Virus record (IMG/VR): IMGVR_UViG_3300032087_002465
Location: 1-26,154 of that record
Direction: 5' to 3' (one strand)
DNA: 26,154 nt
Source of the DNA: a virus
Taxonomy: Duplodnaviria; Caudoviricetes
Positions within the stretch are counted from its first letter, which is position 1, and each line of letters begins with the position of its first letter. Below the pieces are notes generated by a model. It had not been told where the DNA came from, did not search any database, and was given only the letters and a program-made list of their open reading frames with translations. The position numbers and the translations under genes are program-made. Below are positions 2,407 to 25,424 of this stretch, one piece after another.

Positions 2407-2576
2407 ACAAATACTTACAACTGCACATAGATCAGGCCAGTCACTCTACACGGCGGCGCTTTCGTATGACTTTTGCTGTGCTGCGTTGCTTGGGCTATCT
2501 GGCAATGATTTACGCCGTTGTCCTCTCGCTCTGGTGGACGCTGACCTTTGCCTTCGCCATGACACCGGGAATGTGA
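2403..2576 (+). CDS. Small hypothetical membrane protein
   Basis: ATGA overlap with the exonuclease stop; hydrophobic C-terminal half LGYLAMIYAVVLSLWWTLTFAFAM. Confidence 0.6.
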   Translation: MNKYLQLHIDQASHSTRRRFRMTFAVLRCLGYLAMIYAVVLSLWWTLTFAFAMTPGM

Positions 2577-2578
2577 TC

Positions 2579-2917
2579 ATGGTGCAAGCAACGCTCTTTG
2601 AGGCCTTAGAGGCACCTAGAAACCAGCGAGAGGCGCGATTTCTAACCTTCCATCGGTCAAACCCGGTTGTTTATCAGCTATGGGATAAATTTACCCGCGA
2701 GGCATTGGCCAAGGGCCACAAGCGCGTTGGCTCTCAAATGATCATGGAACGTATTCGGTGGGAAACCACGATCAACATTATCGATGCGCGGCCTGATGGC
2801 GAGGCGCTGAAGATCAATGACCATCACAAGCCTTACTATGCGCGGCTGTGGATGAAGAACAACCCGGCCCATGTAGGGCTGTTTAACACAAGATCAGTTG
2901 AGGGTGACAATGAGTGA
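2579..2917 (+). CDS. Phage hypothetical protein (possible DNA-binding)
   Basis: Likely start MVQATLFEAL at 2579, 2 nt after the previous stop; FHRSNPVVYQLW...MERIRWE...KINDHHKPYYARL resembles a recurrent phage early protein. Confidence 0.7.
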   Translation: MVQATLFEALEAPRNQREARFLTFHRSNPVVYQLWDKFTREALAKGHKRVGSQMIMERIRWETTINIIDARPDGEALKINDHHKPYYARLWMKNNPAHVGLFNTRSVEGDNE

Positions 2918-3515
2918 ACTAGCAAAGGCTTTAGCTGAGTTTCAATCGGCGCAGACAGGCTTGGATTTAGACAAGCAGGGCAACAGATCACAATATGCCA
3001 GCGTTGGCTCTGTGATGACTAAGGTAAAGCAGGCCGCACAGCATGGCCTGTCTTTCAGCCAATTGGTTGATTATGAGGATGGTGTCGGCACGCATCTGAA
3101 AACCTACATCATGCACACCTCTGGCGAGGAAAAGGTGGGCCGTTATCCGATTGCAGTTGATGATATGACCAACAATCAGAAGCTGGGTTCAGCAATCAGC
3201 TATGCACGGCGATATGCATTGATGGCAGCACTTGGCATGGCTGCTGGCATTCAAGAGGTTGATTTTGACGATGATGACGATGGCGAGATCAATGGCGCAC
3301 TAAAAGACCCACCAAAGCAAGCAGCCAAGGCATATGACCTCGATGCGCTTGAGACAAAAATCCAGACATTCAAATCACTGACCGGGCTGAACGCTTGGAT
3401 CGGCGAGATGAATCCTGTGCTAACGGCGATGCACAAAGAAAACAACGCCGACTATAACCGCTTTTTTGCATTTTGGAAAAAACAGGAAAAGGACATATCC
3501 GATGGCAAGACCTGA
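2910..3515 (+). CDS. erf: ERF-family single-strand annealing protein
   Basis: LAKALAEFQ...YAS...QKLGSAISYARRYALMAALGMA followed by acidic DDDDDG, the diagnostic ERF motif; SD-like GAGGG upstream of ATG 2910. Confidence 0.9.
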   Translation: MSELAKALAEFQSAQTGLDLDKQGNRSQYASVGSVMTKVKQAAQHGLSFSQLVDYEDGVGTHLKTYIMHTSGEEKVGRYPIAVDDMTNNQKLGSAISYARRYALMAALGMAAGIQEVDFDDDDDGEINGALKDPPKQAAKAYDLDALETKIQTFKSLTGLNAWIGEMNPVLTAMHKENNADYNRFFAFWKKQEKDISDGKT

Positions 3516-10869: not shown

Positions 10870-12048
10870 CTATGAAAGCAGATAAGCTGCGCCGAGGTTT
10901 CCGGCGAGGCCGAATAAACCGCCTAAGTTTGATGCTTGATTATTCATTGCTTGAGAATAAGCATTCTGTTGCGCCGCCATCTGTGCAGCAAAGGCACCCT
11001 GCGTGTCGATTGATCCCGGTGCAAAGAACGATGCCTGCTGCACTTGTGGGCCACCAAGCAGTGCCGCCAGTTCGTTAAAGTTCTGACCGCGCAGCGCGTT
11101 ACGCTCTGCAATCTGACGGCTACGATTCTGATTGGCAATCTGATTAGAAAGCAACTGGTTAGCAACAGTGTCTTGACGCGCTGCATTAGCCAATTGCGCG
11201 TTTGCTGCTGCTTGTCCAAAGCCTTGGCCTTGTGCCGCCAGACCGAACTCGCCAGCCGCCGCACGCTCACCAAACTCCTGTTGCCGCGCCGCACGCGATT
11301 GGTTGACCAGCCGGTCTGATTCCTGACCCGCCGCCAATGTGGCCTGCTGCGCCAGCCGACCAAGCTGTTCGCCTTGCTGGCTCTCAAATCGGTTTATGGC
11401 TGAATCATAAGCCTCTGAGGTAATTGGAATACCTCTGTCAGCAAGGTTCTGCTCAAGGGTTTCCCTTTGCCGCGTGAACTCTGGCTGCAACAGCCCTAGC
11501 TGCCGATTGTACAGCGTCTGTTCGATGTTGCTTCTAAACGCCTCTGGATCACTTTGCAGGGCTGTCAGGCCGGTTGTGTCAATGCCAGTTGGCAAAGCTG
11601 TCGGGCTGTTGATGCTGCTTTGGAACGCAGGCAGGCCAGTGGTCGGGTCAATGTTCTGTGCCGCCGTAATGCCTGCTAAAGTAGGGGCTGTTCTAAACGG
11701 ATTCTGAAAATCTGGGTCAGCCTCATAGATCGGTGAGCCGTCAGGGTTTTGCCCCGTAACAGTGCGACCAGAAATACGGTCAAACGCTACATTGCCAAGA
11801 CCCAAACCAGTGCCTTCGGTGGCGGCACGCATCTGCGCTTGAAACGGCGTTTCCTGCGTGAACGCAGCGGTTTGAAAGTCACCATCTTCCGGCGCTCTGC
11901 CCTGCATAAATTGACCTTGATCACCTACATAACCAAATAACAAATTGCCCTGCGGCGTGTATTGGTTAATGCGGTTCGCGTCAGCTTGAGCGTTGATTAA
12001 CTCGTTAGGATTTGGCGCGGGTGGTGGTGATGGCGCTCTCTTGCCCAT
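10870..12048 (-). CDS. Putative DNA ejection / pilot protein, first
   Basis: MGKRAPSPPPAPNP...ANRINQYTPQGNL N-terminus, Q/A-rich coiled coil, C-terminal LGGLFGLAGNLGAAYL; follows a GNAT gene as P22 gp7 follows gp14; TAAGGA SD. Confidence 0.7.
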   Translation of the reverse strand: MGKRAPSPPPAPNPNELINAQADANRINQYTPQGNLLFGYVGDQGQFMQGRAPEDGDFQTAAFTQETPFQAQMRAATEGTGLGLGNVAFDRISGRTVTGQNPDGSPIYEADPDFQNPFRTAPTLAGITAAQNIDPTTGLPAFQSSINSPTALPTGIDTTGLTALQSDPEAFRSNIEQTLYNRQLGLLQPEFTRQRETLEQNLADRGIPITSEAYDSAINRFESQQGEQLGRLAQQATLAAGQESDRLVNQSRAARQQEFGERAAAGEFGLAAQGQGFGQAAANAQLANAARQDTVANQLLSNQIANQNRSRQIAERNALRGQNFNELAALLGGPQVQQASFFAPGSIDTQGAFAAQMAAQQNAYSQAMNNQASNLGGLFGLAGNLGAAYLLS

Positions 12049-21438: not shown

Positions 21439-21651
21439 TTAACTAAATAGTTTGTTTTGCTCGTTGCCGATTTCGACAAAATTATTGCGCCGCAGGAACT
21501 CACGATGCTGTGAACGGCTGGTGATCCAGCCACGATCTTTCATGTTCTGATACGGCTCTATGTCGCGGATAAGAGAAAGGCCAGCGTTTCCGCTGGCCTC
21601 TGACTTTTCGACTAATTTACCGTCCCTATAGACGAATGTTTTTTTGCTCAT
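21439..21651 (-). CDS. Small phage head-module protein
   Basis: DIEPYQ...ITSRSQHREFLRRNNFVEIGNE; ATGA-coupled to the upstream gene. Confidence 0.75.
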   Translation of the reverse strand: MSKKTFVYRDGKLVEKSEASGNAGLSLIRDIEPYQNMKDRGWITSRSQHREFLRRNNFVEIGNEQNKLFS

Positions 21652-21860
21652 CGCATCAGCATCCCTGCTGCCACCTGACGCATTTCTGCGTCCATCTTGC
21701 GCCGTGGCCGGTTAAACTGACCCAAGCTACTCATCAAATCAGGGAATATCTTAGACAGCACCGCCGCTAGTGGGCTATCGAGTGCCTCGCGCACAATCTC
21801 TTTTTCCTGCTCTGATAGCGCCTGATAGGCGGCATCAGCAGCATCCAGATCAATTTCCAT
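21648..21860 (-). CDS. Small helical hypothetical protein
   Basis: 70 aa; TAATG and ATGA overlaps on both sides; AAGGGA upstream. Confidence 0.7.
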   Translation of the reverse strand: MEIDLDAADAAYQALSEQEKEIVREALDSPLAAVLSKIFPDLMSSLGQFNRPRRKMDAEMRQVAAGMLMR

Positions 21861-23062
21861 TATCTAAAGTCCCTTGGGTTTCCGAATAATCCTAAGTCTG
21901 GCGCAGCTTGGCCGGGCATCTGCATATTGCGTGTTTGCAACAGATCAACCAGCGTGCCGCCCGCATATCCATATGGCTGGAATAAATTATTCTGGCCTGA
22001 ATAGAGGTAATATGGATTTTGCAGATAATTGACCGCCAGATCGTCAATCTGTTCTGGCGTGGTTGTGCCGGGGTCTATTGGTGCGTCTGGCTGTTGAGCA
22101 GCCATCTGATTATTGCTTTGCCGATCATCGCCTGCACCATTGTTGCCAGCAGTCCCACGCACCAGCGATTCAAATGGCCCAGAATAATTCGGATCGTTCA
22201 TGCCGCTGTAAACGACACCGCCCAATGCGTTCATGCTTAATGTGCCGGGGCCAGCCTTTGCGCCTGACACCAATCCAGTTTCGGGATCACGGACACCACC
22301 CAGCGACATTAACTGCCCAACATTGAAAGCAGCGGCATCAGCCGCATCTGGCGCATTAGCAAGATTACCTAATATTCCACCAGACAATATCGAACCAACA
22401 GCCGTGCCGGGCGCATTGCCGCCGTAAAGTTCATCATAAGCATCAGCAAAGAAGCCGCTTTCTGCATCCCTGCGCCCGGCTGCTCCCTGCACGCTGTTTA
22501 TAATATTTGGGCTAGGCTTGTTGCCCATAAGAGATTGTGCTTGTGACATAAATGCTGAATCTCGCACAAGCTGATTTGCTAATTCTTGAGGCGATAAACC
22601 GGCTGCGTCTGGTGATAGCCCAGCGGTCATCTCACTACCACCTGATGGGGCAGCAAACGGATCAGGCGCACCAGCAGACGCGGCTAGCATTTGCCGGTCT
22701 GTCATCGGCTGCTGTCGTGCCATAGCTTGCGTTGCCGATTGGTTTACAAGGTCAAGAGGGTTTGCGGCTGGCGCGACAGTTGTGACTTGGCGCGGTGTCA
22801 CACCGAAATTTTGATTTCTTTCCGATGGCGTAGGCGCACCACGGCTAGCCCGGTCATCATTAAAATCCTGCTGTCGCTGCGGTCTTGGACTTGGATTAGC
22901 TGGGCCAGCTTGTGCTGGTGGCTGATTAGTCCGGCCTCGCTCCGTACCACGGTTTGGATCAGAGCCACCACCGCCACCGCCGCCGCCGCCGCCATCACCG
23001 CCAAAACAAAACATCCGGCGCTGGTAATAATCATCATCTAAAATTAGGTGCTTGCCGACCAT
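21860..23062 (-). CDS. Gly/Pro/Gln-rich, lysine-poor low-complexity protein (putative internal virion protein and acyltransferase substrate)
   Basis: 400 aa; MVGKHLILDDDYYQRRMFCFGGD-G10; overlaps the HlyC-like gene by 19 nt; function inferred. Confidence 0.6.
   Translation of the reverse strand: MVGKHLILDDDYYQRRMFCFGGDGGGGGGGGGGSDPNRGTERGRTNQPPAQAGPANPSPRPQRQQDFNDDRASRGAPTPSERNQNFGVTPRQVTTVAPAANPLDLVNQSATQAMARQQPMTDRQMLAASAGAPDPFAAPSGGSEMTAGLSPDAAGLSPQELANQLVRDSAFMSQAQSLMGNKPSPNIINSVQGAAGRRDAESGFFADAYDELYGGNAPGTAVGSILSGGILGNLANAPDAADAAAFNVGQLMSLGGVRDPETGLVSGAKAGPGTLSMNALGGVVYSGMNDPNYSGPFESLVRGTAGNNGAGDDRQSNNQMAAQQPDAPIDPGTTTPEQIDDLAVNYLQNPYYLYSGQNNLFQPYGYAGGTLVDLLQTRNMQMPGQAAPDLGLFGNPRDFR
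22964..23002 (-). repeat. GGN trinucleotide tract encoding GGD-G10
   Basis: (GCC/ACC)n run on the + strand. Confidence 0.9.
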
Positions 23063-23445
23063 GATTTACCCTTCTGCTTGCGCCATCCCTTAAAAGTGAC
23101 ACTTTTGCCATATTGTTTGCCTAGATGGTCACGCCCTTCGCGCACCATCTCTCTAACGCCGCCAAACGGCCCTAAAAAGTCCACGACATAAGCGGTCTCG
23201 CCGCTATGCCAATCGTCAATCTGCAATTTGCGCTCACCTGTCAAATAGCCCTGCTCAACCTCATCATTGAAAAATCCCCAAGTCATAAAGCCAACGGGGT
23301 TATCGTCACTTTCCCAGATGCGATACTGGCCTAACGCGATTGCTGGCAAAAACAGCCGGTGAACGTCATCTATCGACCATTCACGGTGGATCGGGCTATG
23401 GCCAGCAAGCCAGATCATCTTTGCAATTGCTTCACCCGCCTTCAT
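23044..23445 (-). CDS. HlyC-family (RTX toxin-activating) lysine acyltransferase
   Basis: WLAGHSPIHREW...LPAIALGQY...PVGFMTWG...DDWHSGE...VDFLGPFGG aligns by eye with HlyC motifs (WLW..SPLHRNW, LPAI..NQY, PVAYCSWA, EDWTSGD, IDWIAPFG); catalytic Ser/His and Asp retained. Confidence 0.9.
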   Translation of the reverse strand: MKAGEAIAKMIWLAGHSPIHREWSIDDVHRLFLPAIALGQYRIWESDDNPVGFMTWGFFNDEVEQGYLTGERKLQIDDWHSGETAYVVDFLGPFGGVREMVREGRDHLGKQYGKSVTFKGWRKQKGKSWSAST

Positions 23446-25424
23446 CCGTTTGTCACCACCTTGGCTGCATCAATTTCCAGCTTTTGCTGCTTAAAGTCGG
23501 CATCCTGCGCGACTTTTTGCTGATCAAGCTGCAAGCGTGCAACTTTGACTTGTGCATCGGCTGCTGCCTGCTGTGTCTGCGCCTGCACCTTGGCGGCTTC
23601 CACCTCGATCAGTTTATCTTGAGGCGTTGGCCCTGATTCCTGCGGTGCCTCAATGCTTTCCAGACTTTCTTCCAAATCTCTTGCGCCGGGAAAGGCTCTG
23701 GCGGCAAATAACAGCATTTGTTTGGCCTGCTCAAAGCCTACAGCGCCAGATGCCACCAATGGGCCAATGGCCTGCAAAAACTGCACGGTGGCTGTCAAAA
23801 ACTCTGTGCGGCTCTTTTGTTCTGTTGCAGAATCCATTGCGCTGGATTCATCAGTATCCACCGACACGCGATATGAGCGCAGCCGGTCATCCCGCATCAC
23901 AGCGACAACCTCTGGTGAAATCTCAATGCCGGTAATGCGCGAGAGTAGTGACGGCTCAAGGTTTTCGACCAGCAACTCTGCTTTTAGTTCCATGATCTGG
24001 TCTAGGAACTGTTCTACGCGCCGTTGCCGGTTGACCAGACGCATGGCCCCGAACTGGCCCTTTATGCGCTGCGCCGTGGCTGTCTCACGGCTGGCCGACT
24101 GACCGCGCATGATATCTGAGATGCCGGTGATCTCATAGATTGTTTGCACCACGATCTGGCGCGATTGATATAGCTGGGCTAGCGCCTTGATCAGATTGTC
24201 CAGCGGTGCTTCCTGCATGACATTGGCAAGACCGCCGCCAGCCTGCAACATGGCCATGTTGTCCACCGGCACAAATTCATTGTCGCTGGCATTGGACAGG
24301 CGCTGCAACTCGCTAAAGCTGGCATCGTAGACGCCGCGCCGTTTTAGGGCTTCGGTCAGATTGGCAATGCGCTGTGTGATCAGATCAAGCTCGAATAGCT
24401 GATCTTCATAGGTCAGTATCTCTGGCACCGGCACCGTTGTGTCTGTCGTGCTGATGGCATAAAGCGGCTCTGGCATTGGCCAGAAGCCCTCAAGATTATA
24501 AGGATCATCAAATTCTTCCAGCAACTCATTGAAATCACTGGCAACAAATATCTGCTTTAGGCTGCGCTTGTCCCAGATTTCATAGACCTCTGCCATGTCT
24601 GGCTGCTGGTCATCATCATAGCCGCCAGCATCCTCACCGCGATAGGTCAGCGGTATTTGCTCACCCTTTGCGCCGTAATAATCAACCAGTTCTTGGCGGG
24701 TCATCAGGTGCCTGAAGGCAATCCAGTTAACATCTTCCCAGCTTCTTGCCGGGGCCATTGTGAAATCCTGCCAATGGACATATTCACAGCGTATTGACTG
24801 CTCACCAATATACTCAATCGGCGCACCCTCAATGTACGGCCCCTGCGGCCCGACCTTGACCATGTTCTGATCAATCTCGCTGCCATCAGCGCCAATGAAT
24901 GCTTGGCCGATAGGCACCTCGCCCATCTGACCGGGCGCAACCTCGCCCACGCCCATGATCCTGTTTACTTGCACAGGAATGCGCTCCGGCTCACCCTCAA
25001 CCAGCAATGGCTCATATGTCATACGCATCACGCCGCGTCCGACAATCAGCATATCCTCAATGACGCGCCTGACCGCACCGTCAAAATTGTAAACATCAAG
25101 CTGGTACTGCAAACCACGTTGCAGGACAGTCGAAATAATCCGGCCAATGGGGTCTTGGTCTTTAAAACGGCGTGTGACACGCGGCTTTGGCGTTTTGAAA
25201 TACAAGCTGGATTTCAGCGTATCGACATTGCTGTAAAAGATGTTCATGCGTGTTTCGCGTGTTACGCGATCCGGCGTGTCATCTCTGTAGCGGTCAATGA
25301 TGTTGTAACAGCGGTCATGCCAGTTTTCCTCGAACCGTCTGGCACGCCTGATTTGCTCATTCCAATACCGCGCACGTTCCCCCTTCTTGGTGGGTTCGCG
25401 GTCATAATCATAGGATTCAGCCAT
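23442..25424 (-). CDS. Portal protein (P22-like, with C-terminal barrel helix)
   Basis: 660 aa directly after the terminase; IYEITGISDIMRG...ETATAQRIK; Q/A-rich C-terminal coiled coil. Confidence 0.88.
   Translation of the reverse strand: MAESYDYDREPTKKGERARYWNEQIRRARRFEENWHDRCYNIIDRYRDDTPDRVTRETRMNIFYSNVDTLKSSLYFKTPKPRVTRRFKDQDPIGRIISTVLQRGLQYQLDVYNFDGAVRRVIEDMLIVGRGVMRMTYEPLLVEGEPERIPVQVNRIMGVGEVAPGQMGEVPIGQAFIGADGSEIDQNMVKVGPQGPYIEGAPIEYIGEQSIRCEYVHWQDFTMAPARSWEDVNWIAFRHLMTRQELVDYYGAKGEQIPLTYRGEDAGGYDDDQQPDMAEVYEIWDKRSLKQIFVASDFNELLEEFDDPYNLEGFWPMPEPLYAISTTDTTVPVPEILTYEDQLFELDLITQRIANLTEALKRRGVYDASFSELQRLSNASDNEFVPVDNMAMLQAGGGLANVMQEAPLDNLIKALAQLYQSRQIVVQTIYEITGISDIMRGQSASRETATAQRIKGQFGAMRLVNRQRRVEQFLDQIMELKAELLVENLEPSLLSRITGIEISPEVVAVMRDDRLRSYRVSVDTDESSAMDSATEQKSRTEFLTATVQFLQAIGPLVASGAVGFEQAKQMLLFAARAFPGARDLEESLESIEAPQESGPTPQDKLIEVEAAKVQAQTQQAAADAQVKVARLQLDQQKVAQDADFKQQKLEIDAAKVVTNG

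Follow-up and report, generated by a model that had tools for sequence, protein, structure and literature searches.

Why would a phage carry, directly after its portal gene, an enzyme of the kind that activates bacterial toxins? The question is raised by a virus record of 26,154 bases (Caudoviricetes; IMG/VR record IMGVR_UViG_3300032087_002465), which was analyzed over its whole length and is referred to below as the window. Its morphogenesis operon lies on the minus strand and comprises, in this order, genes for the terminase, the portal, a 133-aa protein, a 400-aa protein (p400), two 70-aa proteins, a probable scaffold, the capsid, the tail, and probable ejection proteins. The initial annotation described the 133-aa gene (23044..23445, minus strand) as an HlyC-type acyltransferase, known from the activation of RTX toxins, and p400 (21860..23062, minus strand) as its candidate substrate, fatty-acylated to bring a virion or ejected protein to the host membrane. 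Our analysis keeps the enzyme and the partner and moves the site. From sequence comparison, we propose that HlyC acylates the mature N-terminal amine of p400, with a probability of roughly 0.55; that the enzyme targets the N-terminal region of its partner is likely.

Profile, fold, and catalytic residues all place the 133-aa gene in the HlyC family, as an intact and conserved member. The motif series noticed earlier is present in full (SPIH at residues 17–20, LPAIALGQY at 33–41, DWHSG at 78–82, and DFLGPFG at 89–95), and the protein matches phrog_20210 and the HlyC/TAAT family PF02794 (E 5.3e-30, 104 bits, cut-off 25). Its residues 5–112 align without gaps to the sequence of ApxC (4WHN; E 1.2e-16). 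The structural model has a predicted local distance difference test score (pLDDT) of 95 and, when overlaid on 4WHN with Foldseek, gives TM 0.82–0.83, E 8e-12, and a root-mean-square deviation of 2.5–2.7. Ser17, His20, and Asp89 (codons 23397–23395, 23388–23386, and 23181–23179, minus strand) align, again without gaps, to the S-P-L-H and I-D-W-I-A-P-F-G motifs of ApxC. The family is described as having a catalytic His/Asp dyad and a Ser three residues before the His (PMC8510554, PMC8339906; these papers, like the others cited below, are drawn on in part). The median dN/dS is 0.11 in 186 usable pairs from 52 close HlyC genes, and position 89 is Asp or Glu in all 122 distinct phage enzyme–partner pairs. 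Complete relatives of the phage are 33–34 kb long; our statements about genome-wide absence rest on five relatives rated complete, each of which holds one HlyC.

The usual companions of such an enzyme were not found in the window or in the complete relatives. A six-frame scan for RTX nonapeptides gave no match in the window, and a search of 30 window proteins gave no match to ABC or HlyD families, in agreement with the initial annotation, which had seen neither RTX arrays nor type I secretion genes. An RTX-like gene elsewhere in the genome, which it had considered as a contrary case, was not found in any of the five complete relatives. In particular, the RTX repeat PF00353 had no match in these genomes (control positive in 2/14), and neither did the type I secretion ABC transporter PF00664 (control positive in 13/14). 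With neither RTX repeats nor an ABC exporter in the window or the five relatives, we rejected an RTX toxin system (rtxCABD). A class IV contact-dependent growth inhibition (CDI) system, cdiBCAI, was also rejected, as the genes flanking the acyltransferase encode the portal and p400, not CdiB and a large CdiA. A search of genome_contigs for portal relatives, as a prophage route to the host, found none.

The neighboring genes are tightly linked. The TGA of the portal gene (660 aa, 23442..25424, minus strand; phrog_12082, E 3e-156) overlaps the ATG of HlyC as ATGA, and p400 starts 19 nt inside the 3' end of HlyC, so both overlaps are as initially described; six leader codons of p400 fall within the second. 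To survey gene order, we used portal-seeded, p400-seeded, and metagenome locus sets, which are not independent of one another and have contigs in common. In the portal set (the best 80 of 147 loci), the portal was followed by HlyC in 71 cases and by a GNAT-family gene in three, and six loci were cut; thus an acyltransferase occupies this slot in 74 of 74 uncut loci. Upstream of p400, the best 80 of 90 viral loci had HlyC (65), GNAT (2), or a contig end (13), and the 25 metagenome loci had HlyC (9), GNAT (6), or a contig end (7), while three were not scored as p400. Every p400 locus with upstream DNA present carries HlyC or GNAT there. We regard p400 as the likely partner of HlyC and predict that it is a virion or ejected protein.

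The exchange of the two enzymes is accompanied by a change in the partner. The replacement GNAT (PF13420, phrog_1249, annotated as an acetyltransferase) does not align to HlyC. Leaderless partners of HlyC start with M-G in 28/28 loci, and partners of GNAT start with M-C in 8/8. In one pair of loci, with HlyC (L473, partner start MGDSPS) and GNAT (L472, MCGGGS), respectively, the partners differ at residues 2–6 and, from residue 13 on, show 83% identity across 295 columns. In a further locus (L038), HlyC is 50% identical to that of the window and the leader is different, and 95.5% identity to the window resumes directly after the Gly run of p400. These loci, together with the start switching by enzyme class, indicate that the enzyme and the first residues of its partner travel together. 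Leader types cluster on the HlyC tree; we did not count this as co-evolution, since kin share labels and the genes adjoin. A mosaic is also seen in the comparison of window positions 23500–22100 with locus L040: the portal and the 3' end of p400 have 98–100% nucleotide identity, and HlyC with the first three quarters of p400 has 48–87%.

Which residue of p400 could be the acceptor? The composition of p400 given in the initial annotation is correct (3 Lys, 22 Arg, and a sole Gly-Lys at residues 3–4). Scarcity of Lys, however, was rejected as a marker of the substrate, as a 392-aa protein encoded at 12048–10870 has fewer (1 Lys). Acylation of Lys4, which the initial annotation favored, would follow HlyA, where Gly-Lys sites are used (PMC8510554), but it is very improbable for p400. 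We found 393 homologues of p400, and 112 of the 120 listed bear a leader. Gly-Lys occurs within the first ten residues in 6/112 of these; Lys is present in the Lys4 column in 5 of 63 aligned homologues; and 23/112 have no Lys at all. Moreover, the codon for Lys4 falls where the p400 and HlyC genes overlap, in a leader that is wholly missing from sister lineages. CdiA, the substrate of CdiC, also has a Gly-Lys site, which CdiC leaves unused (PMC8510554). More generally, the partner family has no conserved Lys, and in 71/112 leader-bearing homologues there is none after the C-[FY]-x position. The idea of a fatty-acylated partner thus survives in its conserved HlyC enzyme, its likely downstream partner, and the lack of an RTX system in the five complete relatives, and fails in its Gly3-Lys4 site.

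The feature that is kept is the N-terminal junction, either C-[FY]-x-[GS]-D-G closing a leader or a bare M-G start. In the window, the predicted removable leader comprises residues 1–20 (23003..23062, minus strand) and ends with R-R-M-F-C-F; the candidate acylation site is the junction C19-F20-G21-G22-D23-G24 with the subsequent Gly run (22964..23008, minus strand). Among the 63 aligned homologues, D23 is invariant, R16, C19, and G24 are conserved in at least 90%, and the ∼130 residues after the junction vary freely. The x position is Lys in 76/112 leader-bearing homologues and Asp, Gln, Gly, Glu, or Met in 35, with Gly in the window. Leaderless sister lineages begin with M-G-D-S, M-G-G-D-S, or M-G-S-E.

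The proposed mechanism is as follows. HlyC and the start of the gene behind it are passed on as one unit, and the enzyme would acylate the mature N-terminal amine of p400. In leaderless partners, removal of Met would expose an N-terminal Gly; in leader-bearing ones, a cut after Phe would leave G-G-D-G in the window and K-G-D-G in many relatives. We put at a little better than even the chance that the acyl group goes to the alpha-amine exposed when Met is removed or the leader is cut near C19-F20, most simply after Phe. The leader protease would be a host enzyme; it and the cut site are predictions. Host proteases have precedent as leader-cutting enzymes, since OpdA removes 20 residues from P22 gp7 to leave K-G-G-K-G (PMC8402733) and Prp cleaves after Phe (PMC9405229). 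The donor is probably a long-chain acyl group on the acyl carrier protein (ACP) of the host, by analogy with the characterized family members (PMC8953716, PMC8510554). At DNA ejection, the lipid might anchor p400 in the host envelope, a role suggested by the CdiC analogy and the gene position, which we rate at somewhat below even odds. In T7, small ejected core proteins are bound at the portal (PMC11784390).

Similar N-termini recur next to distant HlyCs. A DNA scan for HlyC motifs returned 87 stretches, and HlyC was encoded in all 86 loci analyzed. Together with other loci, these gave the 122 distinct enzyme–partner pairs, which form 16 clusters at 50% identity; the forward count excludes clusters 2, 4, and 15, which had been found through the partner motif itself. 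A partner with a leader and C-[FYW]-x-[GS]-D is present in five of the 13 remaining clusters, and an M-G or M-S..D start in four. The bodies of the partners are mutually unrelated, except in clusters 0, 3, 7, and 12. The motif occurs in 8/11 partner families vs. 3/77 other open reading frame (ORF) families of the same loci (Fisher p 4e-7, an optimistic value, as the motifs were defined after viewing the partners and the loci are not independent). In the reverse direction, a DNA scan for C-F-x-G-D-G-G-G yielded 69 loci, 43 of which had HlyC directly upstream on the same strand; four were at contig ends, 20 were apparent chance matches by eye, and two were real genes without HlyC nearby (L242 and L259). 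A locus search with one distant HlyC as the query found nothing.

The annotated HlyC genes of the cultured phages CRP-235, HTVC103P, HTVC104P, HTVC112P, and HTVC115P belong to the same family as that of the window, and the next protein starts with M-G in CRP-235, HTVC112P, and HTVC115P. Among 96 bacterial hlyC loci (48 with a downstream ORF of at least 80 aa), the phage motif follows hlyC in one, where the protein resembles the CRP-235 partner. Gly at position 2 after bacterial hlyC is seen in 17/33 ORFs vs. 10/163, but by family the ratio is 2/11 vs. 7/97 (p 0.23), and for this reason we do not use this pattern as support.

Several observations weigh against N-terminal fatty acylation, and some of them point to other explanations. 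None of the five complete relatives encodes a phage ACP. His20 is replaced by Tyr in 5/53 close relatives, and catalytic positions vary in some relatives; Asp89 is replaced by Glu in HlyC clusters 3, 12, and 13. With the unrelated, acetyltransferase-annotated GNAT in the same slot, this would suit an enzyme that transfers a short acyl group to the same N-terminus, or binds or processes the leader without any lipid, so that the partner is protected or matured with no membrane anchoring. We consider this unlikely, though it deserves serious thought; the characterized members with their long-chain donors speak against it, as does the fold, which is far nearer ApxC than any GNAT (Foldseek E 3e-3 or worse for the latter).

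The family is described as acylating lysines only (PMC8339906, PMC8510554), and where x is Lys, a lysine acceptor is available at the junction itself. HlyC could thus modify this Lys or, in trans, Lys3 of the 392-aa protein, its sole Lys, which lies in a conserved M-G-K start, or a Lys of another virion protein. This is improbable, given Gly at x in the window, the Lys-free homologues, and the 392-aa protein having its own upstream GNAT in 5/5 relatives; it also leaves unexplained why partner starts switch with the enzyme class. The latter rule has its own exception, since the GNAT of the window precedes this M-G-K protein, and so GNAT does not always mean Cys.

Cys19 is another candidate; it could form a thioester or, after a cut before it, become an N-terminal Cys similar to the M-C starts of GNAT partners. 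Cys is present in 111/112 leader-bearing homologues, usually as the sole Cys, and the leaderless protein of L242 (986–2337) begins with M-C-F-G-G-D-G. The gene preceding it, in the slot expected for an acyltransferase, is unclassified, with no Pfam or PHROG match, a further difficulty for our proposal. However, leaderless HlyC partners start with M-G, those shown contain no Cys, and Cys-free leader forms exist (L050, L080, L092, and L119), which makes acylation of Cys19 quite unlikely.

In HTVC103P and HTVC104P, HlyC is located in the replication region and lacks a partner of this type, as would be expected of an accessory gene that acts on a toxin or an envelope protein of the host and whose position in the head operon is incidental. 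We give this hardly any credence, as an acyltransferase follows the portal in every uncut portal locus and the partner motif reappears downstream of distant HlyCs.

There are further difficulties. Of the 13 clusters, four are irregular: that of HTVC103P/104P has no such neighbor, the partners in HTVC112P and HTVC115P (two clusters) start with M-G without the Asp motif, and the partner in L172 has a G-D-G-G stretch and an uncertain start. In L259, the motif is on a scaffold gene and no HlyC is found within the 3-kb locus. Neighboring stretches of DNA are inherited together irrespective of what they do, and hence the co-movement of the enzyme and the partner's start carries limited weight. The protease Prp (PF04327) was found in none of the five complete relatives. 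No Pfam, PHROG, or NCBIfam family matches p400, and neither does any known virion protein. Finally, the mature N-terminus of P22 gp7 could be read by sequencing (PMC8402733), which means that an ejection protein of similar type is unblocked at least in part.

Extended beyond this locus, the proposal is that short-tailed phages run a system that lipidates virion and ejected proteins at the N-terminus, in which HlyC would act on a Gly that is N-terminal without a leader or after removal of one ending with C-F, and GNAT on N-terminal Cys, the enzyme and the first codons of its partner forming exchangeable cassettes and the lipid anchoring the DNA-delivery channel in the host envelope. We offer this as a tentative generalization that may well prove wrong.

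Some loci add observations of their own. The HlyC genes of HTVC103P (L011, 8986–9435) and HTVC104P (L014, 4986–5435), found among replication genes and without a motif-bearing neighbor, have no Ser/His at the aligned positions. In HTVC112P, which has a tape measure gene, HlyC is located between the gene for minor tail protein L and a central-tail-fibre-J-like gene starting with M-G-G (L013, 8411–12659); from this, the HlyC family may act on tail tips, too. In L259, the leader of the scaffold ends with C-F-D-G-D-G and that of the capsid with C-F-A, resembling Prp-cleaved leaders (1462–2358 and 2423–3022). In bacteria, an M-G start immediately follows hlyC in two families, with 13/13 members in one (many from Rhodobacteraceae-type genomes) and 4/7 in the other (RTX-like), although by family this is not significant (loci L271, L273, L278, L279, and others; L296, L332, L334, and L338). 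These families would fit N-terminal Gly acylation in bacteria as well.

Other parts of p400 and of the window can be described briefly. In the model of p400, 252/400 residues have pLDDT under 50. A small folded domain at residues 240–302 (22157..22345, minus strand) has pLDDT 82–95 in blocks 241–300. Fold searches with this low-confidence model gave a best VIA-align Z of 3.3, a best Atlas value of 0.80, and one unnamed viral match, none of them a clear structural match. The most invariant columns are in the C-terminal segment, residues 330–399 (21866..22075, minus strand), which could be a capsid-loading signal. Two conserved 70-aa genes (21439..21860, minus strand), present in related loci, separate p400 from the scaffold gene and have no family match above the cut-off. 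The probable scaffold (21426–20347, minus strand) is assigned by position, with no family match, and is followed by the major capsid protein (20343–19402, minus strand; phrog_9953, E 1e-96). The 514-aa gene after the adaptor (17719–16175, minus strand) matches phrog_5107, labeled ‘amidase’; by its position, it more likely encodes a tail protein.

The window also contains a GNAT–partner pair, formed by a GNAT acyltransferase (12463–12005, minus strand; phrog_4470) and the 392-aa virion protein (12048–10870, minus strand; phrog_6121). This GNAT is found in all five complete relatives, although the match in one of them (G004) contains a TGA, and the M-G-K start of the next protein is present in all four loci shown. 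One ejection region, L177 (2097–5529), has both enzymes: a phrog_308 gene (GNAT) precedes an M-C-L-G-G-G protein, HlyC precedes an M-G-S-D-S protein, and there is a further M-C protein.

The initial annotation knew of no description of this role for the family, and this holds in part. In the main texts of open-access papers, we found neither a study on what a phage HlyC does nor one on N-terminal acylation by the HlyC family. The HlyCs of the cultured phages appear as GenBank annotations and in one figure legend, where no function is proposed in the part available (10.1101/2019.12.14.876532). A non-RTX substrate for the family is, however, not new, because CdiC acylates CdiA (PMC8510554). To the extent of this literature search, both the N-terminal signature and the exchange between HlyC and GNAT are new. 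The available parts of PMC8402733, PMC8954989, and PMC11784390 do not mention acylation of P22 or T7 ejection proteins, and that of PMC11288001 has nothing on acylation.

With this proposal, phrog_20210, a phage family listed as unknown, would acquire a function, and there would be a testable reason for the presence of acyltransferase genes beside ejection genes in podophages. If true, it adds N-terminal amines to internal lysines as acceptors of HlyC enzymes, which would be new chemistry for the acyltransferases that activate toxins, and gives bacterial viruses a counterpart of N-myristoylation. Standard proteomics easily overlooks peptides with a modified N-terminus, which may explain the lack of notice. 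Cultured phages that carry the pair (CRP-235, HTVC115P, and HTVC112P) make the idea directly testable.

Among known systems, the podophage ejection proteins (P22 gp7; T7 gp6.7/gp14; phrog_308, phrog_1249, and phrog_4470) resemble the locus in the GNAT–partner pairs of the window and L177 and in the replacement of HlyC by GNAT in relatives. P22 gp14 and T7 gp13 are presumably GNAT-like as well. The likeness to P22 gp7 extends to its 20-residue leader, lost to a host enzyme, and its Gly-rich mature start (PMC8402733). Unlike p400, which has no detected homology to these proteins, P22 gp7 has a readable N-terminus. Substrates of Prp, such as the capsid and scaffold of 80alpha, L27, and FlhB (PMC9405229), similarly have a short N-terminal extension ending in Phe and leaderless orthologues in other lineages, but their motif is L-Q-F-F-A rather than C-F-x-G-D, and the complete relatives lack a Prp gene. 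The HlyC/CyaC/ApxC enzymes share with the phage protein the sequence family, the fold (TM 0.83 to 4WHN), the Ser/His/Asp positions, and a gene directly upstream of the likely substrate; they differ in length (∼170 aa in ApxC chains vs. 133 aa), while the phage gene is in a head operon, without RTX repeats or an ABC exporter in the five relatives, and its partner is often Lys-free. Functionally, the nearest known system is CdiC of class IV CDI, also an HlyC-family enzyme acting on the non-RTX product of a neighboring gene. CdiC modifies a lysine of CdiA with 3-hydroxydecanoate, and the lipid has been proposed to anchor CdiA in the target outer membrane (PMC8510554). The acceptor there is an internal residue, Lys1467, of a large secreted effector (PMC8510554), whereas the phage locus conserves the N-terminus of a small protein.

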